Part shown: piece after piece, positions 349-51,584 of the stretch
How positions within the stretch are numbered: position 1 is the stretch's first letter
Layout of the letters: each line of letters begins with the position of its first letter
Origin: an uncultured Alphaproteobacteria bacterium
Lineage (GTDB): Bacteria; Pseudomonadota; Alphaproteobacteria; CAAHEQ01; UBA3637
DNA: 64,000 nucleotides
Direction of reading: 5' to 3'
Assembly: GCA_905236245.1 (NCBI GenBank)
Contig: CAJOPC010000004.1
Location: forward strand, 6,079-70,078
Notes under the pieces: generated by a model
Told to the model about the DNA's origin: nothing
The model's input: the letters and a program-made list of their open reading frames with translations, nothing else
The model's database searches: none
Position numbers and translations under genes: made by a program

Positions 349-1224
349 TTATTGACATAATGCAAAACTGCCATAGCAGTGGTTTGTAGGAGATATATTT
401 CCACCATAAAACCCTATCGTGGGCGCATCCATGTTAGCACCTGCATTTATAAACCAAAAACCATTAATGTATCCAAAAGCCTGCATTAATTCATCTAGAA
501 CCGTGCTATATCTTACTTTATTCGCGTTAGTATACCAATTACGATCCCACTCACATGTTTGGCCACTAGCACAACATCCCCCAGAGTAATACCCATTTAC
601 TACAAGTGAATCTGAATTACTTTCATAACATTCAAATTTGCTGATATCTAACAAATTCATACCATGAGCCTTACACCAATTATCCGCTGCCCACCATGTT
701 ATCTCTTGCGTGTTTCTCCTTACTAAACCAAGAGTATTTGTTATCTCATCCTCATATTCATCAGCACTCATACAAACTCCTTTATCTGGTCTATCAGGCA
801 ATATCACCGGCGGAGGGCCATCAATGATACGTGCATCCAAATGACAAAAACACTTCTCATATCCATTTTCAACACACCAATCATTACAATCTCTATTACT
901 TATACAATTACCATCTAAATGTGTTTCTGTCCCACAAGGATCTTGTTCATACGATAAATACACATTTCCATTGGCACACACTGTACAAGATCCATCTGAA
1001 TTATGCTCTAAACCAGCTTCACATTTGGCAATACATGTATCATTCCAAACGTCCTCGTCATCTGTGCACACGACTTTGCTTCCCTCACCTCCAATATGCA
1101 AACTAATAGCATCAACACCTGTTCCACGATAAATAGAAGATTTTCGGCTCTTACCACCACCGCCAAAAGCCAACACACTTGTTGCCACCAAAATCGCTGT
1201 TCCAAATAATAAAATCTTTTCCAT
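349..1224 (-). CDS. Secreted cysteine-rich protein, family member P1 (conserved leader plus C-type-lectin-like C-terminal domain)
   Basis: The internal Met MEKILLFGTAILVATSVLAFGGGGKSRKSSIYRGTGVD matches the leader of four other paralogs. The module CTVCANGNVYLSYEQDPCGTET and the motif WWAADNWCKAHGMNLLDIS are shared with P2 and P3. The ATG lies at 1222-1224 (rev). Confidence 0.75.
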   Translation of the reverse strand: MEKILLFGTAILVATSVLAFGGGGKSRKSSIYRGTGVDAISLHIGGEGSKVVCTDDEDVWNDTCIAKCEAGLEHNSDGSCTVCANGNVYLSYEQDPCGTETHLDGNCISNRDCNDWCVENGYEKCFCHLDARIIDGPPPVILPDRPDKGVCMSADEYEDEITNTLGLVRRNTQEITWWAADNWCKAHGMNLLDISKFECYESNSDSLVVNGYYSGGCCASGQTCEWDRNWYTNANKVRYSTVLDELMQAFGYINGFWFINAGANMDAPTIGFYGGNISPTNHCYGSFALCQ

Positions 1225-3920: not shown

Positions 3921-4823
3921 ATGTCAAGAAAACAAAACAACAGATTAATGATATTTTCTAGCATAGCCTCACTAGCTACGGTCTGCATTTTACTTGTCTT
4001 AAAAACTATTGCTTTTTTTACCACGAATTCCGTTGCCATTTTATCAAGTTTATTTGACTCTATCCAAGACCTAGTCACTTCTGGTGTCAATTTGGTGGCA
4101 ATCAAACAAGCCGTTCAGCCCCCAGACACAGATCATCGCTTTGGACACGGGAAAGCCCAAGGCATCGGAGCATTGATACAAGCGGTTATTATTACTGTAT
4201 CTGCTTTGTTCTTAGCTGCCGAATCTATCAAGCACCTGATACAACACCAAAAAGCGCATGATATTGGTTTTGGTGTTGAAGTTATTCTTATCTCCTTAAT
4301 TTTAACAATGGGACTGATTTTATTCCAAAATTATGTTATTAAAAAAACATCTTCTCTATCTATCAAGGCTGATTATGCTCATTATGCCGGCGATATTTTA
4401 ATGAATATTGGTGTGTTATTGGCTTTGTTTGGAAATACCTATCTTAATTGTTGGTGGATGGACGGATTATTTGGTATTCTTGTTTCAATATATCTGTTAC
4501 GAACAGTTTGGCATATTGCCTCAGAATCTATTTCTTTATTGATGGACAAAGAACTGGATACATCAACTCGCCATACAATTCATGATATCGCTATGCAGGT
4601 AAAAGGAGTTCGAAAGATATCCTCTTTAAAAACTCGGGCGGGTGGGGATTGTATGTTCATCCAATTTAATATTCATCTTGATGGAAAATTATCTTTACAC
4701 AAAGCCCATCAAATCACGGATGAAGTCGAATCAAAATTAAGGGAGAAATATCCTCAAGCAGAAATTATTATTCACGCAGAACCATTTCAAAATAGCAAAG
4801 GGAAGGATAAAAATGCCATATAA
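3921..4823 (+). CDS. Cation diffusion facilitator family transporter (CzcD/FieF-like)
   Basis: Six predicted TM helices followed by a cytoplasmic domain. Motifs such as HYAGDILMN and HAEP are typical of CDF proteins. An extended -10 (TGTTATAAT) lies upstream. Confidence 0.8.
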   Translation: MSRKQNNRLMIFSSIASLATVCILLVLKTIAFFTTNSVAILSSLFDSIQDLVTSGVNLVAIKQAVQPPDTDHRFGHGKAQGIGALIQAVIITVSALFLAAESIKHLIQHQKAHDIGFGVEVILISLILTMGLILFQNYVIKKTSSLSIKADYAHYAGDILMNIGVLLALFGNTYLNCWWMDGLFGILVSIYLLRTVWHIASESISLLMDKELDTSTRHTIHDIAMQVKGVRKISSLKTRAGGDCMFIQFNIHLDGKLSLHKAHQITDEVESKLREKYPQAEIIIHAEPFQNSKGKDKNAI

Positions 4824-17071: not shown

Positions 17072-17686
17072 CTATCTAACCTCTATTTCATCTAAAGAAT
17101 CGATCAATGGATATTCCCACGCGTTTGGCAAATTGAAGTGCCACCATTCATGGGGCAATCCTTCCAAGCCAATGCGAGCCATCATTTCCTCTAAAAGTCG
17201 ACGATTATTTTTTTGTTCTTCCGTGATATCGGGCCCATCATAATCTCTATGGCATTTTTTTAAATACGCCGGATAATTAGGATCTTTTTCATACCCCGGA
17301 TAAAAAGCATCTGGCTCTGTTTGAAAAGAAAGAGGAACACCATTGATATCCGCTAAATAACAGTCAATAGCAACGCCCCGCGAATGAAAACCTCTTTTTG
17401 AATCCGCTTTTGGAGGTGGCGCAATATACGGTTTTATGTAATCTGGCGCATTTTCATACATAAACTTTTGAACGGCCAAAGGTCTAAAAGCATCATAAAT
17501 AACTAAAATTAAATTACGATCCCGCAACTCTTTTTCCAATTGCATTAAACAATCATATAACTTTGGATGCACTAAGGCCTCTGTCAAACCAAAATCTGCA
17601 TACATATCTTTATAAAAAGAATTATTTGTGGTTGCATACAACAATTTAGATTGAATCCACGGGGAAGAAATGCGTTTTAAAATCAT
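17072..17686 (-). CDS. ddpX: D-alanyl-D-alanine dipeptidase (VanX/DdpX, peptidase M15D)
   Basis: DAFRP, HSRGVAIDCYL and EWWHF motifs characteristic of VanX-type zinc dipeptidases. Confidence 0.75.
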   Translation of the reverse strand: MILKRISSPWIQSKLLYATTNNSFYKDMYADFGLTEALVHPKLYDCLMQLEKELRDRNLILVIYDAFRPLAVQKFMYENAPDYIKPYIAPPPKADSKRGFHSRGVAIDCYLADINGVPLSFQTEPDAFYPGYEKDPNYPAYLKKCHRDYDGPDITEEQKNNRRLLEEMMARIGLEGLPHEWWHFNLPNAWEYPLIDSLDEIEVR

Positions 17687-19338
17687 TAAGCCATCCTCCG
17701 TTCTGCTAAGGCTTGTGAAAAGACATTTATTGTTTTATCAACATGATAAAACAAACGAGGTGCATCTGCCCGAGCTGCTTCTGCTTCAATATATCCTGGG
17801 GCAGTAGAATCGAGATATGCGCCCAAAACTGGCAAAGCATTTTTCACCGCTTGACGAGAAGGAGTTGTTGGAATTGCATTTACCAATTCTTTTCTTTTAT
17901 CACTTGGCATACGCGAAATTTCAGACAACTTCATGGGCTGATCCGCATCATTATTCACTGCGGCCAAAGACAACAAAGCCATATCCACCGGCAAATTTTT
18001 AAGCTGTTCTGCCCGATCCCCTTCTCCAATATTTTGCAAAAGGTGCACAAACCGCTTTTTAATTTTGTCCGCATAGGTTGTTTGGAAGAAGCCCCCATGT
18101 GCCAGCACAGACGCGCTTTGGAAAATTAAAACCATCAAGGCACTAGACGGGACAATCTTTTTCTCTTGTAACAAAGGCAATAATACCTCTGGCTTGTGAT
18201 CGATCGTCTCCAACGGCAAGGAAATACATTTAGCAAATCCTTTACATCGTCCGACATAGTCAAACGGGGATTCATTTTGTTTCCAACTTCCTCTAATACC
18301 AATAAACGCTTGTTGCATTTGTTTAAAATTCTCCGGATTTCTAAAAATTTTATACCACAAACTCTCTTTATTTTGCAAAGCAGAAATCAAAAATTTACGC
18401 ACAACCTCCACTGCGTCTATAGAAATATGTTGTATCCCAGTTCCGTCTAAAACTTTATTGATTGTCCTTGATTGAACCAACGCCACTTGATCCGGCAATT
18501 TCAAATCTTGACGATCAAAAATTTCTTTCAATTCCAAATACTGTTTATCTATATCTGAAAAAGTATAACCATACTTTTTATAAGCTTCCGCCGATAAAAG
18601 TAATAACGCTGTTTTTACGAAACTTTGGTTATTAGCATTGAGCGCACGATATTGCTTTTCCACATGATCATAATTCATCTTTCCACCACTAACAGGGCCC
18701 AACAAACTGTTAACAATTTTTTTGGTTTTCATCAACATTTCTTTACGAGGGCTTTGTGTTTTATCAATAATTTCAGGCGTTAAAACATCATCCAAGATTT
18801 TGAGTTTTGCAACCAATGGCAACGCTTCATTAAAAGAACTTCCTTCCATACCGGGCGCATCATATAAACAAACTTGGCTAATTTGACGAGGAGAGGTGAC
18901 TGGGAAAATATCATCTCCTAATTGGAAATAGCCCCCACTACAAGGATGGTTCAAACTAACATTGCTGCCATAAACACCTACATGATATTTTTGTCCCATA
19001 TGACGCATCAAGGCACTTGAAATTAAAACATTTTGATTTAATCGCGAACGCAACTCATCCTTTTGAGGAGAATCATAATCACGCAAAAATGCCAAATGTG
19101 TGCCCGTCTCCACGACCGGGAAAGCTGTCACCTGTTGACATACTTCGTCTGCAATCTCTTTCCCGTAAAGGCGCGCTATTTCTTCTTCCATAGCCGCTAT
19201 AAGCATCTTTTTTTCAGGAGCCGAATCCATATAAGCCAATGGCTCAACCGTTCCTTTAAAATAATCTGAAAGCGTGGGTGTATTCCATATCTTCTGTAAA
19301 ACCGGCAATGCTTTCAAAATTTTTGTACCATCTGTCAT
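17686..19338 (-). CDS. Hypothetical protein (550 aa), overlaps ddpX start by 1 nt
   Basis: Long ORF with good coding look. Its terminator lies upstream of its neighbour. I recognise no family. Confidence 0.5.
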   Translation of the reverse strand: MTDGTKILKALPVLQKIWNTPTLSDYFKGTVEPLAYMDSAPEKKMLIAAMEEEIARLYGKEIADEVCQQVTAFPVVETGTHLAFLRDYDSPQKDELRSRLNQNVLISSALMRHMGQKYHVGVYGSNVSLNHPCSGGYFQLGDDIFPVTSPRQISQVCLYDAPGMEGSSFNEALPLVAKLKILDDVLTPEIIDKTQSPRKEMLMKTKKIVNSLLGPVSGGKMNYDHVEKQYRALNANNQSFVKTALLLLSAEAYKKYGYTFSDIDKQYLELKEIFDRQDLKLPDQVALVQSRTINKVLDGTGIQHISIDAVEVVRKFLISALQNKESLWYKIFRNPENFKQMQQAFIGIRGSWKQNESPFDYVGRCKGFAKCISLPLETIDHKPEVLLPLLQEKKIVPSSALMVLIFQSASVLAHGGFFQTTYADKIKKRFVHLLQNIGEGDRAEQLKNLPVDMALLSLAAVNNDADQPMKLSEISRMPSDKRKELVNAIPTTPSRQAVKNALPVLGAYLDSTAPGYIEAEAARADAPRLFYHVDKTINVFSQALAERRMA

Positions 19339-23440: not shown

Positions 23441-24847
23441 ATGGTTCAAAAAATAAATTTTTCTGCAGATGATCTCAAAATACTCGCTCATGTGCTGGGC
23501 GAATTGAAAATGACTTGTCGTCCGTCTTTTAAACAGATACAGCCTATTGTCCAAATTAAACCTGCCGAACAAGAATTTGGCGCCGAAAACGGCATTTACA
23601 CACTGGACGAACTGAATAATTTATCCCAAACAAATCAATTTTTACCAGCCCATATTGACGCTATAAAAATGAATGGAACTTCGTGGTTTTATTCAGATGA
23701 CGAACCATTTGATTTTTATTCCACAAAAGCCCGGGTTATATTGAGCTTTGCCCCACAACGCATGCTTGATCCTAAAATTCTGAAAAACAAATCCATTTAT
23801 CACCATATACAAAAAATGTTGGCGACTCTTAGTTTACAGGGCAATTTATCCGAGCAAGAAGTTTTACAATTTTTCCCCGAAAATATTTGTCGCAAGATAT
23901 ATGAGCTGGATCCGCCCAGAGAGCACATTTTGAACACGCTCATGAGCAGTATTGAACAAGTTCGCCGAGTTCTTTTCTTGCATTTATTAGCACATCATAC
24001 CAACGATATTCAACAATTACCGGAATTTCAAAAATTTCAACAAAATACCGTTAATTCGCCCAATCTTTTAAAACAATTTTTAAAAAAAGATTATATGGGA
24101 TTTATATTAGCAGAACGTTGGGGATACATTTCCAACGCCAAACAACTTATTTCTTATCAACAACTTAGAGATGTGCCACGTCACCCGTCAAAACTGATGC
24201 CTGATCCTATATTAGCACCGGATTTTGACCCGGCGGCTTTAAGCGATAACGATCAAAATCGTTGGCTTTACCATATGGGCTATCCTTTACAAAACCCAAC
24301 ACAGCTTTACCAAGATTTTAAAAATGCGCTTTCTTTTGTCGCACCTCAAAAAAACAAAAATGTCGTTTCTTATGATGATGCTATGAGCGCTATTTGGTCA
24401 TACCAAAGTATCGAACAATTCAAACAAATTTTAGCGGCCTACCCTCGAGAAAAAAAATTAGAAACATTTTTAACTAAGCATTTTCCAACGGAAATTTCCA
24501 CAGATAATGTTATCATAGAACATCCAAATAATACTCAAAGCCCTGAACAAGTCACACATTTTGACTCATTTTATATCCGGGGAAAAGGTGTCGCTTCTGA
24601 TAAATCTGCAAAAAAACAAACGGACGGATCATTACTCCTCAAAGAAAGTGAATTTCACGATTGGCTCACCCACAGCAATACCAATGCGCATGCTAATTCC
24701 GGTTACCAAGGAAGTGCCAAAATCTTATCCCAAGATCTTCATCTTTTAATGGCTTTTGTGGACACACTCCAAGAAGCTCATGATAGAAAAAGAGGAGTCT
24801 CTCTCAATGGCTTTATACGTCAAAAAAAACAAACTGTTCAAAATTAA
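23441..24847 (+). CDS. Hypothetical protein (468 aa)
   Basis: Long ORF with no recognisable motifs. It could be an orphan or effector-like protein. Confidence 0.45.
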   Translation: MVQKINFSADDLKILAHVLGELKMTCRPSFKQIQPIVQIKPAEQEFGAENGIYTLDELNNLSQTNQFLPAHIDAIKMNGTSWFYSDDEPFDFYSTKARVILSFAPQRMLDPKILKNKSIYHHIQKMLATLSLQGNLSEQEVLQFFPENICRKIYELDPPREHILNTLMSSIEQVRRVLFLHLLAHHTNDIQQLPEFQKFQQNTVNSPNLLKQFLKKDYMGFILAERWGYISNAKQLISYQQLRDVPRHPSKLMPDPILAPDFDPAALSDNDQNRWLYHMGYPLQNPTQLYQDFKNALSFVAPQKNKNVVSYDDAMSAIWSYQSIEQFKQILAAYPREKKLETFLTKHFPTEISTDNVIIEHPNNTQSPEQVTHFDSFYIRGKGVASDKSAKKQTDGSLLLKESEFHDWLTHSNTNAHANSGYQGSAKILSQDLHLLMAFVDTLQEAHDRKRGVSLNGFIRQKKQTVQN

Positions 24848-38349: not shown

Positions 38350-39189
38350 TTACCTACACAATGGTGTAATAAATGGTCCATTTGATTTAGGACGAGAAAA
38401 ATTACCCACATCACTGTTATTAGCCGACACATTAAACATTGCACAGGAATTATCAGCTGAGTAATTAGAGCTGGTCCAAAAACTAACTGGTCCAAAATTT
38501 TGCCTCAGAGCAATAATCACAGCACTATAATGAGAATATACGAAATCTTCATGCTCTGGCAAAATAGTTTTATTCTCACATTGATAACAATTTTCCCAAT
38601 AATTATACCAAGGCCCTGCACTTTGACCAGATACACAACAAGAAGAGTATATACCGGAACCACCAGTAACTAGTGTTGAAGTATCACTCTGATAACAATT
38701 AAACTCGGCCACATCTATTAAAGATTTACCCTGTGCTTTGCACCAATTATCCGCAGACCACCAACTCATCCGTTCATATTTGTTAATGACTTCCCCTAAT
38801 CCTTCTATATTAACAGGGCCAAGCACATCTCCGATAGCGGTACAGGTTCCTGTATTTGGTTGTTCACAATTTGATCCATCCAAATTACAGTATTCGCCCT
38901 CATTACAATCCTCATTACTCTTACAACCATCAAAAATTGTTTCCGTACCACATGGATCTTCTTTGTATGACAAATACACATTACCATTGGCACAAACCGT
39001 ACATTTTCCAAATCTATCCTCTAACACGCCAGCGGCACAAGCGCCACCTTTTCCATTGATACGCACATCAACAGAGTCCACTCCTACTCCGCGATATACG
39101 GAGCTCTTACGACTTTTCCCGCCACCACCAAAGGCCAAAACACTTGTTGCCATTAAAAGTGCTGTTCCAAATAATAATATTTTATTCAT
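38350..39189 (-). CDS. Secreted cysteine-rich protein, family member P2 (conserved leader plus CTLD-like C-terminal domain)
   Basis: MNKILLFGTALLMATSVLAFGGGGKSRKSSVYRGVGVDS leader. The first ~105 aa match P3 at all but one position, after which the sequences diverge. WWSADNWCKAQGKSLIDVAEF motif. AAGGAG RBS. Confidence 0.8.
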   Translation of the reverse strand: MNKILLFGTALLMATSVLAFGGGGKSRKSSVYRGVGVDSVDVRINGKGGACAAGVLEDRFGKCTVCANGNVYLSYKEDPCGTETIFDGCKSNEDCNEGEYCNLDGSNCEQPNTGTCTAIGDVLGPVNIEGLGEVINKYERMSWWSADNWCKAQGKSLIDVAEFNCYQSDTSTLVTGGSGIYSSCCVSGQSAGPWYNYWENCYQCENKTILPEHEDFVYSHYSAVIIALRQNFGPVSFWTSSNYSADNSCAMFNVSANNSDVGNFSRPKSNGPFITPLCR

Positions 39190-39311: not shown

Positions 39312-40034
39312 TTACTTACACAATGCAGGAGCATTCATGCCTTGTCCACCCTGTCGGCCATCTCTTGGGCCAATATATTTATCAAAAGTGCGCACATAAA
39401 CACTCTTACAGATATCTATACCATCATTTACCCAAAACCAATTATAACTTATCTTATCCAAAACTGGTTGCCAATCTAAATGACATCCAGAACTTTCTTG
39501 ACACGTTTCACCATTGATAATGACACCACTAACACTGGAAGGATCAATACCAATATCTTCTAAGCCAATCAACTGTTTTCCCCTAGCAGCACACCAATTT
39601 TCAGCAGCCCAATAGGAAAAAGAATCTTGGCTAATTATACAACCATCATCAAAAGTTGTTTTAATATCATTCTCATTTAATGGAGAACACACGCCTGTAT
39701 CTGGCTGTTCACAATTACTACCTGTCAAATTGCAATATTCATTTTCTCCACATTGTACATTACTTACACAACCTGTTACACTTGTTTCCGTACCACATGG
39801 ATCTTCTTCGTATGACAAATACACATTACCATTGGCACAAACCGTACATTTTCCAAATCTATCCTCTAACACACCAGCAGCACAAGCACCACCTTTTCCA
39901 TTAATATGCACATCAACAGAGTCCACTCCTACTCCGCGATATACGGAGCTCTTACGACTTTTCCCACCTCCACCAAAGGCCAAAACACTTGTTGCCATTA
40001 AAAGCGCTGTTCCAAATAATAATACTTTGTTCAT
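39312..40034 (-). CDS. Secreted cysteine-rich protein, family member P3 (tandem paralog of P2)
   Basis: Leader and first ~105 aa match P2 at all but one position (K/V at the fourth residue). Divergent C-terminus still containing YWAAENWCAARGKQLIGL. Confidence 0.8.
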   Translation of the reverse strand: MNKVLLFGTALLMATSVLAFGGGGKSRKSSVYRGVGVDSVDVHINGKGGACAAGVLEDRFGKCTVCANGNVYLSYEEDPCGTETSVTGCVSNVQCGENEYCNLTGSNCEQPDTGVCSPLNENDIKTTFDDGCIISQDSFSYWAAENWCAARGKQLIGLEDIGIDPSSVSGVIINGETCQESSGCHLDWQPVLDKISYNWFWVNDGIDICKSVYVRTFDKYIGPRDGRQGGQGMNAPALCK

Positions 40035-43998: not shown

Positions 43999-44715
43999 TC
44001 ATTGATTACATGTGTCAGGAGACCAACTACCCCCAGGGGTCACTTCACCAGCACAACATCCCCAAGACCAACTTCCACCATCACACTCCGGCCCATGTCG
44101 AGATAAACAATATGGGGTTGTATCTTTTGGACAACAAATATAGCCTATACACACATTGTTTTCATCGTACTTGTAACAAACGGGTTCAGTTCCCGGAGTG
44201 GTACAACATAAATCTGATCCATCTAGCCCTTTACCTTCAAATACTTCACCATTACAACATGTATAATTATCTCCATATGAAAAACGACCACTCAAATAAG
44301 GCTTTCCTCCACTGGGGCAACACAAAGACCAGTTATAAACACAATTTCCATCAGCATCACGAGTAAAACAAAAAAGGGTGCCGGTGCAACACATTGAAGC
44401 CCACGACCCTACTTGGCGAGAAGCCGATTCTCCTGCTGGGCAACAAAAATTCAATTCTTCATTACAACACTGGTATTCGCCTGATTCGTTCTGACTACAT
44501 ACATTATCACCATAACAACAACCTTTACCGCACTTAACACCATCTGAGCACGTCTCCTCTGAATCACTATCTTTTCCACTAAAATGCACACCGATAGAAT
44601 CAACGCCTACGCCACGATAAACGGAAGATTTGCGACTCTTTCCTCCTCCGCCGCCAAAGGCTAAAACAGAGGTTGCTACCAAAATTGCCATTCCAAATAA
44701 TAATACCTTTTTCAT
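43999..44715 (-). CDS. Secreted cysteine-rich protein, family member P4 (conserved leader plus tandem CC-x-G repeat C-terminal domain)
   Basis: MKKVLLFGMAILVATSVLAFGGGGGKSRKSSVYRGVGVDSIGVHF leader. The C-terminus contains many CC pairs (CCYGDN, CCNEE, CCPAGE, CCTGT, CCPSGG, CCNGE, CCTTPG, CCPKD, CCAGE). AGGAG RBS. It lies 18 nt downstream of the preceding gene. Confidence 0.8.
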   Translation of the reverse strand: MKKVLLFGMAILVATSVLAFGGGGGKSRKSSVYRGVGVDSIGVHFSGKDSDSEETCSDGVKCGKGCCYGDNVCSQNESGEYQCCNEELNFCCPAGESASRQVGSWASMCCTGTLFCFTRDADGNCVYNWSLCCPSGGKPYLSGRFSYGDNYTCCNGEVFEGKGLDGSDLCCTTPGTEPVCYKYDENNVCIGYICCPKDTTPYCLSRHGPECDGGSWSWGCCAGEVTPGGSWSPDTCNQ

Positions 44716-44733
44716 ATTAATCTCCTAAAAAAT

Positions 44734-45156
44734 TTAATGGTGATGATGATGGTGCCTGATTGTCCGCAAATAATCCTGTCTTTCACGATACGAATCTTGA
44801 TAAGTGGATTCATCACGTTCCATTTCGGCATGCTCTTGAATACATGTCCATAACGCCTCTTTTGAAATAGCGCTATCTTTAAAGTAATTCTCACAAGTCG
44901 TGTTTAACTTATCAATTTTTTGCTCAATTCTATCTGCCAATTCTTTGCTAACGGAACCTGACATATGATACAAACGCCTAAATAATTTTTCATAAAACAA
45001 ATGGCACTTCATATTCTGTTCTGAACCAGGCTGAAAACCCAACACTTCTTCACATTGACGATTCAAAGCTTCTTGATAACGTGCCTCACCAATTCGATCA
45101 GAGTCTGCCATCGGGTTAAGTAACAAAGAAGTTAATAAAATACTTCCCCAAAACAC
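44734..45156 (-). CDS. Small secreted protein with a natural C-terminal hexahistidine tail (putative metal-binding), co-transcribed with P4
   Basis: GTG start with an AAGGAGG RBS. Hydrophobic N-terminus. Ends ...TIRHHHHHH-stop. The likely promoter TTGCAT-17-TATTAT is upstream. Confidence 0.6.
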   Translation of the reverse strand: MFWGSILLTSLLLNPMADSDRIGEARYQEALNRQCEEVLGFQPGSEQNMKCHLFYEKLFRRLYHMSGSVSKELADRIEQKIDKLNTTCENYFKDSAISKEALWTCIQEHAEMERDESTYQDSYRERQDYLRTIRHHHHHH

Positions 45157-45261
45157 AAAAGCCTCCTTTTTTTAATGATTTACATGAAAGTATAATACCA
45201 TACATGAAATAAAATGCAAGCACTTATTTCGTTTTCGGGAATCATTTGAAATTATTTTAAA

Positions 45262-46410
45262 TCAATAATTAGATTTTCCTTGATTAAAAAAACCTAAATG
45301 CCGGTTTGTCTTACCTATTTGATTAAAAGAAACTTCCACCATTTTGGTGTAATTAATTCTTTTATCTTTATCTTTAGAAATAATTTGCTCTACACTTACT
45401 CTGGATTCACCAACTTTAGCAAAAATACCATGGAAATACCGCTTAAAAGAAGCAACCAACTCACGCAACTGAACCGGATTCGATGCTTCTCGGACTAAGT
45501 CCGATGCAAACGAAGTCACAGCAGCGCGCTTTAAATCAAGCAACTGTCGTTCCCGCGCGGCGGGAGAAAGATGAATGACTTTATCATACAATCCTTCATC
45601 AATCAATTTAGCAGATTTCAAATACTCCAAAGCGGTTACAATACGCACCTGAGCTCTTTGAAATAAACACTCTTCCTTTTTACCATGAATGTATTGGAAA
45701 GCAACCGGTCGCAAACCATAATCACGAATATCCGCCAAGGCTTTATAAATTCGAAAATTATTTAATTTCTGCAAAGCGCTAGAAGCGCGCATTGTTCTAA
45801 CTCCTAAAGGGGAACGACCTTTTCCGATCGCCATTTTATTCATCCACACCCAACCCGCATCTTCATCAACAGGAGTCGCCCGTTGGCACATTAACTCATC
45901 TACAACACTCACCTTTCCCTTTTGATCTGTGCGCACTTCTTCCATATACAATGCAGTGCTTAAGGCTGCAACCAATTTAATTGGTTTGTCCAAACGAAGA
46001 CATAAATTTATATAAGCATCAAAATTTTGATCAGCCAAATACTTTAAAAGCAAGGAAACTTTTTTTGGGGGCGTAGAAATAAACGCAGCTCCCGCATTCT
46101 CTGGATTCTGAATAGAATTTTGAATTTCTTCCGTTACCATGGAATCTTGCCAACGTTCCATATGATTAAATAATGCTTCATAATCCACAGGATCCACCAA
46201 TCCAAAAACAGCAAACAAAGGTAAATCAGAATAGCTATGATACGCCCGCCACGCAACCAAATCTTTGGCATGCGCTTTCGAATCAAAAAACTTTTTCATG
46301 ATCCTTCTCTGAGACAACCGAACTCGTTCTGAATTCAATGTATCTCTGGCAACTTCTACGCGTTGTATCCATTGAAAATCTCGTTTATCATTTGCCATCA
46401 TACACTCCAA
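45262..46410 (-). CDS. Hypothetical protein (382 aa)
   Basis: Long ORF. I recognise no family. Confidence 0.45.
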   Translation of the reverse strand: MECMMANDKRDFQWIQRVEVARDTLNSERVRLSQRRIMKKFFDSKAHAKDLVAWRAYHSYSDLPLFAVFGLVDPVDYEALFNHMERWQDSMVTEEIQNSIQNPENAGAAFISTPPKKVSLLLKYLADQNFDAYINLCLRLDKPIKLVAALSTALYMEEVRTDQKGKVSVVDELMCQRATPVDEDAGWVWMNKMAIGKGRSPLGVRTMRASSALQKLNNFRIYKALADIRDYGLRPVAFQYIHGKKEECLFQRAQVRIVTALEYLKSAKLIDEGLYDKVIHLSPAARERQLLDLKRAAVTSFASDLVREASNPVQLRELVASFKRYFHGIFAKVGESRVSVEQIISKDKDKRINYTKMVEVSFNQIGKTNRHLGFFNQGKSNY

Positions 46411-46517
46411 ACAAAACTAATTGGTCGCTATTGTACAAGATTTTTTAATTATGTCAAGTTTTTACATACTATAAAAAGCCCCACCAGTTGGCAGGGCTTT
46501 CGTATTGTCTGAAAAAA

Positions 46518-47702
46518 TTACTTTTCCAAAATGGCAACACCCGGCAAAGATTTGCCTTCCATCCATTCCAAGAAAGCACCACCGGCCGCAGACACATAGG
46601 TCATGTCGGCTTTTACACCTGCTTTTTTTAAAGCGGAAACGGTATCACCACCGCCTGCGACGGATGTCAAAGCGCCGGCCTTTGTTTGATCGGCCACCAC
46701 TTTGGCAATTTCGTTTGTGGCTTTGTCAAAAGGTTTGATTTCAAATGCGCCCACCGGGCCGTTCCAAATCAATGTCTTTGCATTTTTAATCACATCAGCA
46801 AAAGCAGCCACAGATTTTTCTCCAATATCTAACAATACTTTGCCGGCAGGTACCGCATTTACATCGGATGTATGGGGCTCTTGACCTTCAGCAAAGGCAT
46901 CGGCCCATACCAAATCTACAGGCAAAACAATTTTGCAATTACCGGCATTAGCCAAAATGTTTTTAGCTGTATCAATCATATCTGGTTCAACCAAAGAGCC
47001 TTCGCCCATTGGAATTCCTTGTGCAGCCAAAAAAGTATGAGCCATACCGCCACCAATGAGCAAGTAATCTACTTTCTTCACCAAGTTACCCAATAAATCC
47101 AATTTCGTGGAAACTTTGCTACCACCCACCAAAGCAACGGCTGGATGGACAGGGTTACCCAAAGCTTTGTCCAAAGCCTCCAATTCTTCCTGCATCAAAC
47201 GACCTGCGCCATTTGGCAACAAATGTGCCATACCTTCTGTGGAGGCATGCGCACGATGTGCCGTTGAGAAAGCATCATTGATATAAATATCCATACCATG
47301 TGCCAAACTTTCGGCGAATTCGCGATCGTTGGCTTCTTCTCCTTCATAGAAGCGTAAGTTTTCCAACAAAATAACTTCGCCTGGTTGCATAGCTGCTACA
47401 GCAGCATCACGAGCTTCGCCCACACAATCGTCAATGAATTTCACGGAAACACCTGCCGCTTTTTCCAAAGCAGGAGCCAAAAAAGCCATAGAAAATTCCG
47501 GATTCTTTTGACCTTTCGGACGACCAAAGTGACTAGCCACCACGGCTTTACCACCATGTTCAATAATATATTTCAAAGTCGGCACAAAACGATCGATACG
47601 AGTTGTATCTGTGATTTGTCCATCCTTGGCAGGCACATTCAAGTCTGCACGAATAAAAACTGTTTTACCGTTAAAATCAAAATTATCCAAAGTATTAAAC
47701 AT
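46518..47702 (-). CDS. pgk: Phosphoglycerate kinase
   Basis: MFNTLDNFDFNGKTVFIRADLNVP N-terminus and conserved Pgk motifs throughout. The start is set at the internal Met. Confidence 0.95.
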   Translation of the reverse strand: MFNTLDNFDFNGKTVFIRADLNVPAKDGQITDTTRIDRFVPTLKYIIEHGGKAVVASHFGRPKGQKNPEFSMAFLAPALEKAAGVSVKFIDDCVGEARDAAVAAMQPGEVILLENLRFYEGEEANDREFAESLAHGMDIYINDAFSTAHRAHASTEGMAHLLPNGAGRLMQEELEALDKALGNPVHPAVALVGGSKVSTKLDLLGNLVKKVDYLLIGGGMAHTFLAAQGIPMGEGSLVEPDMIDTAKNILANAGNCKIVLPVDLVWADAFAEGQEPHTSDVNAVPAGKVLLDIGEKSVAAFADVIKNAKTLIWNGPVGAFEIKPFDKATNEIAKVVADQTKAGALTSVAGGGDTVSALKKAGVKADMTYVSAAGGAFLEWMEGKSLPGVAILEK

Positions 47703-47822
47703 TTTTGTCCTTTCTTTTGTTAAAATAATTGTGTCCATTGTTTTAATCTTTTTTTAAAAAAATTGCAAGAGGAATTTATTTGAAGCCTTAACAAAAATCC
47801 CCCGACAAATCGGGGGAAAATA

Positions 47823-48737
47823 TTACAGGACACACGTATCGGGTTCATTTTTTGATCCTGGGGTAACTGTTCCAGGACAACATCTCCAAGAGGCACCACC
47901 ACAACATCCCTCATATCGGGAGACACAATAAGGCGTTTCTCCTTCACTACAACATGCTGCTTGATAATAGTAATTTTGTTGAATAAAAAACGATGTTACA
48001 CAATCTGCCTTGCCACATGCATATCCATATCCTCTACATTTTTCTCCGTTGGTTTCATATTCTGCACAATATCCTTTTTCTCCCTCTGCACAACAAATAT
48101 GTACAGTACAATTACCTGCATCATCATACTCCGCACAAACTGGTTTTTTCCCATCATAACAGCACAAATCAGCCCCATCCACGCCTTTCTCTTTATAAAC
48201 TTTTCCTCCATTAGAACAACACATATATTGATCTCCATAAGAAAATTTACCATTTATATAAGGCTCTCCATCACAACATAAATACTCTTTAGTACCATCA
48301 TCACGTTCATAAGGGCCATATACTTTCCCTCCAGTTGGGCAACAAGAAGTAGACGTACAATTATCTTCTGCATCTTTATAACTGCAAAACAATTTCCCAG
48401 CACAGCAAGTCGTCTCCCAATATCCTCTGAAGATACGATATGCTCCACCACTTATTGGGCAACAATGATTTAATTCTTCACTGCAGCACTGATACTCGCC
48501 AGACTCATTCTGCTTGCACACATTATCACCATAACAACAACCGCTGCCACATTTGATACCATCAGAACAGGTCTCTTTTCCTGAATCGTCATCTTTTCCA
48601 TTAAAATGTACACCGATAGAATCAATACCTGTGCCGCGGTAGACAGATGCCTTTCGACTTTTTCCGCCCCCACCACCAAAGGCAAAAACCGATGTTGCCA
48701 CCAAAATTGCCGTTCCGAATAATAAAACTTTTTTCAT
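47823..48737 (-). CDS. Secreted cysteine-rich protein, family member P5 (conserved leader plus CC-x-G repeat domain, P4-like)
   Basis: MKKVLLFGTAILVATSVFAFGGGGGKSRKASVYRGTGIDSIGVHFNGKDDDSGKETCSDGIKCGSGCCYGDNVC parallels P4. The C-terminus is longer and repeat-rich. Confidence 0.8.
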   Translation of the reverse strand: MKKVLLFGTAILVATSVFAFGGGGGKSRKASVYRGTGIDSIGVHFNGKDDDSGKETCSDGIKCGSGCCYGDNVCKQNESGEYQCCSEELNHCCPISGGAYRIFRGYWETTCCAGKLFCSYKDAEDNCTSTSCCPTGGKVYGPYERDDGTKEYLCCDGEPYINGKFSYGDQYMCCSNGGKVYKEKGVDGADLCCYDGKKPVCAEYDDAGNCTVHICCAEGEKGYCAEYETNGEKCRGYGYACGKADCVTSFFIQQNYYYQAACCSEGETPYCVSRYEGCCGGASWRCCPGTVTPGSKNEPDTCVL

Positions 48738-48832
48738 CTTTTATCCTTTCTTTATTAAATTACAAAACACCCCTGCCTTACGGCACGGTTTAATTCATCG
48801 GCGTCGCCGATTTTGCTCGGCAAGCTTTTAAT

Positions 48833-48854
48833 TGTGTGTGTGTGTGTGTGTGTG
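48833..48854. repeat. (TG)11 dinucleotide microsatellite, about 100 bp upstream of the P5 start codon
   Basis: Perfect TG x 11, visible directly in the sequence. Confidence 0.9.
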
Positions 48855-48965
48855 TACAAAATAAGGGCTATCGCCTTATTCACGTTCGCTATTTTTTTTA
48901 AAATCATAGAATCATTCCTACACATGGCTTCATTTTGACATATACTTCAATGAATTGTCAAGGGG

Positions 48966-49000
48966 AAAACAAAAAAATACTCCCGATTGTGCGGGAGTAT
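48966..49000 (-). terminator. Terminator of the FadL-family gene
   Basis: ATACTCCCGcacaatCGGGAGTAT hairpin plus a 7-T run on the minus strand. Confidence 0.7.
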
Positions 49001-49019
49001 TTTCGATTTTTACCCGATA

Positions 49020-50258
49020 TTAAAAATGATACTGGGCGCTTAAACCAAGGCTGTTGAGTTGCGTATGATATGTTCCGCGAATTTCGGTCTGTCCCGTTGT
49101 GTTAGCTTTACTAGCCACACGAGCTTTGGACCAAAACATATGGAAATAGCTGGCATCGATTTGCCAATTACCTCTTTTATAACTGGCACCAATACTGGCA
49201 ATCCAGCGGTTTGCGTCTGGCACACGCGCGGTACGATGCTTTGGATCTTTTACCGCACCTTGATCATAAGCCAAACCAGTCCGGAAGGTCAAATTTTTGC
49301 AATAATGATAATCGACGCCACCAGAAACTGTCCAAGTATTCCGCCAATTTTCATCAACTTGAGATGGAGTTCTCCCAGGGCCTAATTGAGCCAAAGCCGT
49401 TGAATCAATAGACAACAAATTGAAACGGCTCCAACGTGTCCAACGTGCCATAGCAGAAAGACCAAACTTGCCAACTTCTTGATAGGCTGTTAATTGAATG
49501 TGCTCTGGATCTACCAACTTTGTACTACTATAACCTTCTTTACGCCCCACTGCGGGATTTGGGTGTTGAAAGTGGTGTTTACCTTTAATATTTTGCACAA
49601 TCGGAGAACGATAAGCCACACCGAAACGTGCTGTCTTTGTTGGCTCAACCATAATACCAGCATTCCAACCATGTCCCCAACCATCAGCATTCATGTCGGA
49701 TTTACCGCCAGCAGCAGAATCCAATGTATTTGTTAAACGTGCTTGCATGCGTTCCAAAATAAAGCCACCACCAATACTCAACCATTGCAATGGTTTCCAT
49801 GCCAAAGATGGATGGATATCAATTGTTTCAATCTCACTCACCAAAGAATGTGTACGACCAAACCAAGATTTATTATAATATGTGCCCAATCCAAACGGTA
49901 CATACAATCCTAAACCTAAACGCCAATTTTCGGAAAGCGCATATTGTCCGAAAGCATGCGGAATCAATTTAAAGTTACGCAATTTACCTTTGGAAGTCGC
50001 TGTACCATCACTCAATGAACCACCTTCCACATTGGAATGAATGTCCATTCCCATAGCACCCAATTGCATACCCGACTTTCTCAAAGTCATACCGGCAGGG
50101 TTAAAAGCCACTGCAGAATAATCGTCACCAACGATACCTGCTCCGGCAAAAGCACGACCGGCATTTGTGACAGAGTATTCCTGTAATTGATAACCACCGG
50201 CCCAAACACTGGTGGAAGCCATTAATAATACTGCTAATAATGTTAATTTACTTTTCAT
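49020..50258 (-). CDS. FadL/OmpP1/TodX family outer-membrane hydrophobic-compound transporter
   Basis: Signal peptide. The mature N-terminus AGGYQLQEYSVTNAGRAFAGAG is typical of FadL. C-terminal aromatic residue (..YHF). Confidence 0.8.
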   Translation of the reverse strand: MKSKLTLLAVLLMASTSVWAGGYQLQEYSVTNAGRAFAGAGIVGDDYSAVAFNPAGMTLRKSGMQLGAMGMDIHSNVEGGSLSDGTATSKGKLRNFKLIPHAFGQYALSENWRLGLGLYVPFGLGTYYNKSWFGRTHSLVSEIETIDIHPSLAWKPLQWLSIGGGFILERMQARLTNTLDSAAGGKSDMNADGWGHGWNAGIMVEPTKTARFGVAYRSPIVQNIKGKHHFQHPNPAVGRKEGYSSTKLVDPEHIQLTAYQEVGKFGLSAMARWTRWSRFNLLSIDSTALAQLGPGRTPSQVDENWRNTWTVSGGVDYHYCKNLTFRTGLAYDQGAVKDPKHRTARVPDANRWIASIGASYKRGNWQIDASYFHMFWSKARVASKANTTGQTEIRGTYHTQLNSLGLSAQYHF

Positions 50259-50435
50259 TTTTTCTCCTTTTGTTTCACTTTGGTGACACTATTATTACAC
50301 TTTTATTACAACAATGCAACAAAAAAATTTAAAAAAATGAAACTATCTTATTTTTCAAAATAAAATACGCATCTAAACTCATATACAACAAAAAAACACC
50401 CCCGAGTTTCGAGGGTGTTTCTTTTAAGTTGAAGA

Positions 50436-51443
50436 TTACAACAATTTGCCCATAGCAACGGCTGTATCCAACATACGATTGGAGAATCCCCATTCGTTGT
50501 CATACCAGCTCATCACACGCAATTGTGTACCACCCATCACCTTTGTGCCGTTAGCATCAAATGTGGAGGAGTGAGCATCATGTGTAAAGTCGATGCTGAC
50601 CAATTTTTCGGCGTTGTAACCCAAAATTCCTTTGAGTTCACCTTCTGCAGCGGCTTTCAAAGCGGCGTTGACTTCATCAACGGTTACTTCTTTTTCCATA
50701 ATGAAGTTAGCATCCACCAAAGAAACATCTGGGGTCGGCACGCGAATCGAAACACCGTCCAATTTGCCGGCCAATTCTGGCATCACCAAACCAATAGCTT
50801 TAGCAGCACCAGTCTTTGTTGGAATCATGCTCATAGCAGCAGCACGAGCGCGATACAAATCTTTATGTAATTGATCCAAAATCTTTTGATCATTTGTGTA
50901 GCTGTGAATTGTTGTCATAAAGCCTTGTTTAATGCCAAAAGCTTTTTGCAATACATAGACCACAGGGGCCAAACAGTTTGTTGTGCAAGATGCATTAGAA
51001 ACAACCAAATCTTCGGCTGTCAATGTATTTTGGTTCACACCGTACACGATTGTCTTATCGGCGCCTTCTGATGGAGCAGACACCAACACGCGTTTTGCAC
51101 CAGCTTGCAAATGCACCATAGCTTTTTCCTTGGATGTAAAGATACCTGTGCATTCAAACACGATATCAACACCCATTTCACCCCATGGCAATTGTGTTGG
51201 ATCTTTTTGAGCAATCACGCGGGTCTTTTTATCTCCGGCGAGCAAATATTCACCCTCGGCACGAATATCCATATCTAATTTTCTGTGAATAGAATCATAC
51301 TTCAACAAATAAGCATTGGCGGCGGCGTCACCCAAATCATTGATGGCAACGATATCCACATCTGTGCGGCCAGATTCCAACCAAGCACGATATACCAAAC
51401 GGCCAATACGGCCAAATCCGTTAATAGCAACTTTTACTGTCAT
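50436..51443 (-). CDS. gap: Glyceraldehyde-3-phosphate dehydrogenase (type I)
   Basis: [15 protein letters not shown] start. [10 protein letters not shown] active site. The upstream ORF extension was rejected. Confidence 0.95.
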
Positions 51444-51529
51444 TTTCTTTATTTTCCTTTCATTAAAAATACGACTTAAAAATCGTGCCTTTGATATAAG
51501 CATATTTTTTATAAAATTGCAAGCACTTT

Positions 51530-51558
51530 TTGACAGATTTTGAGTTCCATGGTATAAT
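51530..51558 (+). promoter_or_regulatory. Perfect consensus sigma70 promoter (TTGACA-17 bp-TATAAT) driving a small ORF
   Basis: TTGACA at 51530-51535 and TATAAT at 51553-51558. Confidence 0.65.
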
Positions 51559-51584
51559 GAAAGTGTCAACGGAAAGGAGAGCAC

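Follow-up and report, generated by a model that had tools for sequence, protein, structure and literature searches.

A stretch of 64,000 nucleotides from an uncultured alphaproteobacterium (contig CAJOPC010000004.1 of assembly GCA_905236245.1), hereafter called the window, carries two genes, P4 and P5, whose products are exported proteins made largely of tandem short modules bracketed by cysteines. The repeat matches no described family and is new against the Pfam, NCBIfam, and PDB libraries; without a detectable relative in any of the three, it is yet confidently predicted by AlphaFold2. Repeat proteins with dense disulfide bonding, common in the extracellular biology of eukaryotes, are rare in bacteria, and this one marks a multigene family in an uncultured alphaproteobacterial lineage that is functionally almost uncharted. 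The favored reading, held with modest confidence, is that P4 and P5 are exported, are stapled by disulfides, and form stalks or coats within a modular, clade-restricted adhesin family. The cysteine-repeat scaffold and the N-terminal handle shared by the family are rated as new, while the bacterial modular surface protein is known in kind.

Architecture of the cysteine repeat

The two genes, taken from the list of open reading frames (ORFs) of the window, and the parts of their products are as follows.

47823..48737, minus strand: P5 gene, 304 amino acids, 37 cysteines, 12 CC doublets, stop codon included
48681..48737, minus strand: P5 Sec-type signal peptide, residues 1-19 (MKKVLLFGTAILVATSVFA), by inspection, with cleavage predicted before the invariant F20
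48597..48680, minus strand: P5 N-terminal handle, mature residues 20-47 (FGGGGGKSRKASVYRGTGIDSIGVHFNG), common to all five paralogs of the window whatever their passenger
48570..48596, minus strand: P5 acidic, serine-rich linker, residues 48-56 (KDDDSGKET)
48459..48569, minus strand: P5 head module, residues 57-93, C-x5-C-G-x2-CC-x-(G/D)-N-V-C-x9-CC-x6-CC
47826..48458, minus strand: P5 array of cysteine-bracketed hairpin modules, residues 94-304, mapped by regular expression
P5 residues 93-111, 133-154, 155-173, 174-192: four type B modules (regular expression)
P5 residues 112-132, 193-215: two type A modules (regular expression)
P5 residues 216-262: irregular piece of 47 amino acids, its first half type A-like, with a low-confidence insert
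P5 residues 263-278: truncated type A-like piece; after it come eight residues (279-286) and the terminal cap, which ends in CPGTVTPGSKNEPDTCVL
43999..44715, minus strand: P4 gene, 238 amino acids, 28 cysteines, 9 CC doublets, stop codon included
44659..44715, minus strand: P4 signal peptide, residues 1-19 (MKKVLLFGMAILVATSVLA), by inspection
44575..44658, minus strand: P4 N-terminal handle, residues 20-47 (FGGGGGKSRKSSVYRGVGVDSIGVHFSG)
P4 residues 48-55: acidic linker
44440..44550, minus strand: P4 head module, residues 56-92
44002..44439, minus strand: P4 hairpin-module array, residues 93-238, with the cap CAGEVTPGGSWSPDTCNQ
P4 module order: B (92-109), A (110-132), B (133-153), B (154-170), A (171-194), A-like (195-220), cap

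The unit of the repeat is a module with a cysteine at both ends, and the modules are joined cysteine to cysteine; the CC doublets thus exist because two cysteine-bracketed modules abut, and for the definition of modules the sequences were split between both cysteines of each CC. Cysteine accounts for 15% of the mature P4 and P5 chains. Even at this content, the doublets exceed chance about 2.5 times, with 9 observed against 3.6 expected in P4 (9 of 20,000 shuffles of the mature sequence reach this number) and 12 against 4.7 in P5 (none of 20,000). Two main module types were distinguished in about 50 related proteins. Type A, C-x7-C-x8-C-x4-C, occurs in 109 exact instances with the consensus C-[SAE]-x-G-[QE]-[TS]-P-Y-C-[AS]-x-[YR]-D-x-[DN]-G-x-C-x4-C, and type B, C-x15-C, in 89 with the consensus C-S-G-T-V-Y-x-G-x-G-x-[DN]-G-x-D-L-C. 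Both keep the turn residues (D-x-[DN]-G) and aromatics. In the same set of relatives, the number of inner cysteines is even in 606 of 611 CC-bracketed modules (99%), and the total number is even in 15 of 18 full-length family members (p = 0.004). Such even inner counts indicate that cysteines have been gained and lost pairwise within modules, as is characteristic of self-contained disulfide units and not of thiolate metal clusters. The arrays range from about six modules in P4 to about 70 in the 1743-residue relative P0021, a spread to be expected of a spacer.

P5 follows the plan of P4 with extra modules and the 47-residue irregular insert, the two proteins being 49% identical by BLASTP over 99% of P5 and 65% identical in the alignment A1. 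Conservation within the family is highest in the head module, with C57, C63, G64, C67, C68, N72, C74, C84, C85, C92, and C93 invariant and a cysteine spacing of 5-3-0-5-9/10-0-6-0 in most members. At the other end, P4 finishes with SWSPDTCNQ and P5 with NEPDTCVL; in this PDTC ending, the type B module takes a terminal variant form (...V-T-P-G-x-x-x-x-P-D-T-C), which occurs internally in the relative P0043.

The AlphaFold2 model of P5, built with a family alignment of 18 sequences, has a mean predicted local distance difference test score (pLDDT) of 74.6 and a predicted template modeling score (pTM) of 0.64. The pLDDT is about 90 at residues 60-225 and 260-304 and below 50 at residues 1-54 and in the insert 236-257. 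According to DSSP, the model consists exclusively of strand-turn-strand units whose strand pairs coincide with the modules, and each module is predicted with high confidence to be a β-hairpin. We consider the description of the repeat as an array of cysteine-bracketed hairpins to be very probably correct.

The signal peptides, assigned by inspection, have the composition of type I substrates: in P5, an n-region KK and a hydrophobic core of 16 residues precede V-F-A at positions -3 to -1, and in both proteins the signal peptide ends in V-F/L-A before an invariant phenylalanine. At the cleavage site between MKKVLLFGTAILVATSVFA and FGGG, all 18 members have the alanine at -1 and the phenylalanine at +1. 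A lipobox cysteine is absent from position +1 in P4 and P5, whose first cysteine is residue 56/57. Export and disulfide bonding of both proteins find good support in the Sec-type signal peptide, the cysteine parity, and the confident all-β model. The parity of the cysteines is a strong though indirect argument for disulfides.

The initial annotation of this stretch had set both ORFs at these ends, and every motif string quoted in it is found in the translations, as are the PDTC termini. The common leader it described is real and extends to three more paralogs in the window, and its view of a densely disulfide-bonded exported protein agrees well with the sequence features and the model. The figure of about 30 cysteines per protein was approximate, 28 being present in P4 and 37 in P5. 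As for the repeat itself, formulated as a tandem "CC-x-G", it is real, but its unit had to be redefined as a hairpin module, in two main types, that has a single cysteine as bracket at each end, with CC at the junctions. The statement that the repeat could not be recognized is borne out by the searches described below.

Known families and distribution

At E ≤ 10, hmmscan matched neither P4 nor P5 to a Pfam family, and at the same threshold Pfam and NCBIfam held no cysteine-repeat family for either protein; the three paralogs P1-P3 were negative too. A Pfam scan of relatives of up to 1743 amino acids (about 70 modules) also returned no cysteine-repeat family. Unrelated rows at chance level appeared in the library scans, P5 being paired with a glutathione-reductase model (E 0.28) and the relative P0041 with N_methyl (E 0.007). 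The family profile found nothing among PDB sequences at E ≤ 10, and Foldseek produced no significant fold match, the best E value being 0.43 with template modeling scores (TM-scores) below 0.2. No match to the P5 repeat region was found by tblastn in phage and plasmid collections, nor to the span 43999-48737 by megablast against plasmids, and a literature search found no earlier description of this repeat family.

The top non-significant Foldseek matches were EGF arrays and TNFR cysteine-rich domains (Pfs25, Notch EGF4-7, CD40, DcR3). These are elongated chains of small disulfide-knotted modules that serve as extracellular spacers or binding surfaces, as the P4/P5 arrays would be; however, the cysteine spacing differs, and CC junctions are no feature of EGF or TNFR. 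An EGF-like or TNFR repeat identity was rejected in view of the absent Pfam match and the Foldseek values (E ≥ 0.43, TM-score < 0.2).

Granulin (PF00396), a eukaryotic module, has a fixed 12-cysteine unit, C-x5-6-C-x5-CC-x8-CC-x6-CC-x5-CC-x4-C-x5-6-C. The family alignment A2 was compared by hhalign with seven human granulin modules, whose sequences retrieved PDB granulin chains at E values down to 6e-26. A granulin-like identity of the head module was rejected, the probability being 1.1% over 7 aligned columns with no Pfam match to PF00396; at about 1% against granulins, the P4/P5 family is not granulin. The 12-cysteine spacing was rejected as well, since the family instead begins 5-3-0-5-9-0-6-0-16/17-0-5-8-4/6-0..., and the resemblance to granulin is confined to the short CC-x6-CC-P stretch. 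Whereas granulin has single strands between its CC pairs, the P4/P5 family has whole hairpins of 15-23 residues there, along with an extra inner cysteine pair in many modules and open-ended arrays (6 to about 70). Only the general logic of placing CC at hairpin junctions is in common.

The family is narrowly distributed. A word-indexed search with P5 in 5.8 billion clusters found 20 proteins, all without names, and an exhaustive HMMER search with a profile of the mature region in 1.84 billion representatives found only 42. Public assemblies hold proteins identical to P5 (P0001) and P4 (P0002), and the window matches scaffold_9 of ENA assembly ERZ28573572. In a genome-collection scan, relatives fell in "Alphaproteobacteria bacterium UBA3650", which is unclassified below class, and in the alphaproteobacterial metagenome-assembled genome SGB_7547. 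The window and the locus of a distant relative, P0026, show synteny, with Mpl ligase, LD-carboxypeptidase, and SLT present in both, and a UDG gene lies immediately downstream of the family member at both the P0043 and P0026 loci. From this synteny and the placements it follows that all placed members, a minority of the 42, belong to one alphaproteobacterial lineage.

Shared handle, lectin-like heads, and the proposed role

A six-frame scan of the window for the leader found five leader-bearing paralogs, P1-P5, all of which start with M-x-K-[VI]-LLFG...ATSV[LF]A-FGGGG(G)KSRK.S.YRG.G[VI]D. Besides P4 and P5, they comprise the following genes.

349..1224, minus strand: P1, same leader, lectin-like domain
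38350..39189, minus strand: P2, same leader, short cysteine-rich neck, C-type-lectin-like C-terminal domain
39312..40034, minus strand: P3, same leader, lectin-like domain, in tandem with P2

The same 301-kb contig has three further leader-bearing proteins listed on it (P0005, P0027, and P0075), and six candidates on other contigs are alike in leader style and source pattern (P0003, P0006, P0014, P0018, P0051, and P0069). With these candidates, the number of paralogs may be as many as 14.

The handle at residues 20-47 consists of FGG, a glycine/basic stretch, and Y-x-G-x-G-V-D-[SA]-I-G-V-H-[FI]-x-G, and it is kept in two sub-lineages and on passengers whose folds are unrelated. In the nucleotide alignment of the leader, synonymous differences are abundant among P1, P4, and P5, which indicates that the handle is selected as a peptide and does not reflect recent gene conversion; an explanation by gene conversion or cassette shuffling via the conserved 5′ leader was rejected on these grounds. 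Upstream DNA is in common only for the tandem pair P2/P3. The I-x-V-x-F alternation suggests a β-strand that could join the sheet of a partner, and the handle might act as an anchor or sorting element. A profile search with the leader only returned 9 short fragments, uninformative on passengers.

Three kinds of passenger are carried by the leader, namely cysteine-hairpin arrays (P4 and P5), a different C-terminal domain (P1-P3), and both in series, as in P0006, P0014, P0019, P0027, and a 593-residue protein of locus L003. The heads of P1-P3 have a C-type-lectin-like fold and resemble adhesin tips. In P0041, P0043, P0067, P0068, and P0071, a pilin-like N-terminus takes the place of the leader ahead of the same repeats and/or head; the segment, recognized by eye, has the form G-[RK]-[ST]-[ML]-[IV]-E-hydrophobic helix, for example G-RSMVEMLGVLAIIGVLS. 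Pfam N_methyl (PF07963) does not match P0067, P0068, or P0071, and the pilin-like methylation motif is not present in P4 or P5. These pilin-like relatives, P0043 (L006:8001-10796) among them, come from the same metagenome. A VirB3/VirB4 assignment upstream of P0043 was not retained, as Pfam gives only a sub-threshold match to a TraG P-loop ATPase (E 2.5e-4), from which no conclusion was drawn. The extracellular, possibly host-exposed function put forward in the initial annotation is supported only indirectly, by analogy with the lectin-like-head and pilin-like fusions of the relatives.

The following mechanism is proposed. The Sec-type signal peptide, as read from the sequence, would direct the chain across the inner membrane. 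In the periplasm, the region with about 15% cysteine would be oxidized into a string of small β-hairpin modules, each bracketed by cysteines, with an additional inner cysteine pair in the type A modules and with neighbors joined cysteine to cysteine to give the CC doublets. Such a disulfide-stapled, protease-resistant array could have a structural role, that of a stalk or spacer. Paralogs and relatives have the same array between a presumed N-terminal anchoring element, either the 28-residue "AFGG...Y.G.GVDsIGVHF" handle or, in other proteins, the pilin-like hydrophobic N-terminus, and a C-terminal C-type-lectin-like head, which would bind a presumed ligand. P4 and P5 would be headless forms with a short cap, shown on the surface or released from it as binding or coat proteins, and the alternating I-x-V-x-F strand of the handle would dock them to an envelope partner. 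The recurrence of an anchor, an array of variable length, and an optional adhesive head points to the stalk or spacer of a surface adhesin family. Surface display and an adhesin-type role are proposed tentatively, their probability falling just short of even.

Two bacterial systems offer a comparison. Intimin and invasin, considered here as a repeat stalk with a C-type-lectin-like tip, have an N-terminal outer-membrane β-barrel and Ig-like (Big) repeats; the P4/P5 family, in contrast, has no barrel and uses a cysteine-stapled hairpin spacer, and P4 and P5 themselves are headless. Bd2740 of Bdellovibrio (PDB 8oks) is an adhesive fibre displayed on the surface and tipped by a C-type lectin variant that does not depend on calcium; the MAT fibres are trimeric (meandering trimerization) and have no cysteine repeats, and some of them, though not Bd2740, contain β-helical domains (PMC10769870). 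The match to Bd2740 concerns heads of the P1-P3 type and not the cysteine repeat of P4/P5, and there is no sign of trimerization in the family. If the arrays are indeed rigid, protease-resistant stalks for lectin-like heads, they would provide a clue to how these bacteria attach to surfaces or hosts; if so, a compact modular disulfide scaffold of this kind might also be of interest for protein engineering. The shared handle could be a sign that diderm bacteria have a mechanism of anchoring or sorting not yet described. A bolder version of the proposal, which we hold to be doubtful, would see in the repeat a new bacterial fold or repeat class, a disulfide-stapled β-hairpin rod converged on granulin logic, in the handle a new sorting or anchoring signal, and in the whole family interchangeable surface adhesive modules of a probably host-associated clade, with P5 maybe phase-variable via (CA)n.

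Several observations weigh against a surface stalk. P4 and P5 have no recognizable binding head, no C-type-lectin-like domain being found in either, and the total number of cysteines in P5 is odd (37). The pilin-like N-termini of the relatives were assigned by eye and by a single sub-threshold N_methyl match, that of P0041 (E 0.007, 16.3 bits against a cut-off of 21.2). The handle is predicted to be disordered (AlphaFold2 pLDDT < 50 in isolation), and no partner for it was found. No outer-membrane translocation or anchoring machinery was identified, the neighbors of the family genes being unrelated housekeeping genes; they differ from locus to locus, with no conserved partner or secretion gene among them. 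No Dsb gene was found among the ORFs scanned in the 64-kb window, and the evidence base consists of metagenome assemblies throughout. A sister organism with family members does have a DsbA-like gene (L009:3295-3894, minus strand) about 4 kb from the member P0011; its product, with a signal peptide and a CSHC site, matches Thioredoxin_4 (E 7e-20) and DSBA (7.6e-5). Two glycosyltransferase genes separate this gene from P0011.

The missing head and anchor, the lack of secretion or anchoring genes nearby, and the predicted disorder of the handle would all suit soluble proteins, rich in disulfides, that stay in the periplasm or are freely secreted and serve, for instance, as stress-protective binders or decoys resistant to proteases; their leader would be a signal peptide with a pro-region. 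This explanation is considered unlikely, though worth keeping in mind: the 28-residue segment after the signal peptide is under peptide-level selection across different folds, which exceeds the needs of a signal peptide; relatives exchange the handle for a pilin-like membrane or pilus anchor while retaining repeats and head; and lectin heads resembling adhesin tips make most sense extracellularly. The high cysteine content of the mature chain with its many CC doublets also brings to mind metallothionein-like sequestration in the periplasm, with Cu, Zn, or Cd thiolates formed by CC and C-x-n-C, and a cation-efflux gene does occur in the window (3921..4823), though not adjacent to either gene. 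Such a role is highly improbable in view of the even inner cysteines in 99% of modules, the confident regular β-hairpin model, export into an oxidizing compartment, and a chain rich in aromatics (tyrosine 5.5% in P4 and 9.3% in P5) with conserved glycine/aspartate turns; moreover, the histidine-rich and CxC clusters typical of metallothioneins are absent, and fusions to lectin-like heads do not suit metal storage.

Mimicry of, or descent from, eukaryotic cysteine-rich signaling modules of the granulin, EGF, or TNFR type, by which P4 and P5 would act on host receptors, is improbable for the reasons given above, namely the lack of Granulin, EGF, and TNFR matches in Pfam at E ≤ 10, the profile-profile value of 1% against the seven human granulins, a spacing unlike the 12-cysteine motif, and fold scores that all lie below significance. 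In addition, the inspected matches of the exhaustive search all carry the family's own repeats, with no granulins or other known cysteine-rich families among them. Small, exported, disulfide-rich, and fast-diverging proteins in multiple paralogs might equally be secreted antimicrobials or toxins directed against competitors, yet no immunity, processing, or export genes lie nearby, no PADLOC- or bacteriocin-type family of NCBIfam is matched, and array lengths of up to 1743 residues together with lectin-head fusions speak for a scaffold over a compact toxin, so that this possibility, too, carries very little weight.

Gene surroundings and expression signals of P5

Both genes are preceded by good Shine-Dalgarno sequences (AGGAG before P4 and AAGGA before P5). 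The following elements were found around P5.

49004..48973: strong terminator of the upstream fadL-like gene, preceding the promoter-like site of P5
48932..48961, minus strand: promoter-like site upstream of P5, TTGACA-18-CAAAAT with extended TG, a pattern match from a consensus scan
48833..48855: (CA)11.5 tract, past the promoter-like site and ahead of the P5 start codon
47798..47817, minus strand: terminator-like hairpin of 8 pairs, 6 of them G-C, then a T-run; it starts 6 nucleotides past the P5 stop

Given the promoter-like site and the terminator-like hairpin, P5 looks monocistronic. The (CA)11.5 tract is the sole dinucleotide microsatellite of the window and has equal length in the public copy L001. 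Dinucleotide tracts can drive phase variation of surface proteins, and this one may be a candidate switch of that kind for P5.

Three genes unrelated to the family lie between P4 and P5, namely pgk (46518..47738) and the orphan ORFs 45262..46410 and 44734..45156. Just downstream of P4 is nifJ/PFOR, and upstream of P5 are a fadL-type outer-membrane gene and the gene gap, giving the order gap, fadL, P5, pgk, two orphans, P4, nifJ/PFOR, P3, P2. Family genes alternate singly with genes of central metabolism and form no island (43999..51584, minus strand). The gene content of the window is that of an ordinary diderm (BamB, AsmA, FadL, Der, YchF, MiaB), and the presence of PFOR and a rubredoxin-fused flavin reductase suggests an anaerobic lifestyle.

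The orphan ORF directly upstream of P4 (44734..45156, minus strand) encodes 140 amino acids with a natural hexahistidine tail (..TIRHHHHHH) and four cysteines and has no family match. The density of orphans among the housekeeping genes of the window is unusually high: the large ORFs 17686..19338 (minus strand, 550 amino acids), 23441..24847 (plus strand, 468 amino acids), and 45262..46410 (minus strand, 382 amino acids) match nothing in Pfam or NCBIfam and show no obvious signal peptide. Two other neighboring orphans, 59380..60726 and 60739..62052 (both minus strand), are paralogs of each other (25% identity, E 1e-13) and belong to no Pfam or NCBIfam family. The N-terminus of the product of 60739..62052 is lipoprotein-like (..LMQTGC). 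Both members of the pair carry an H-E-x-x-H motif (HEAAHV and HEGEHV, respectively) and may be novel metalloproteases or effectors.

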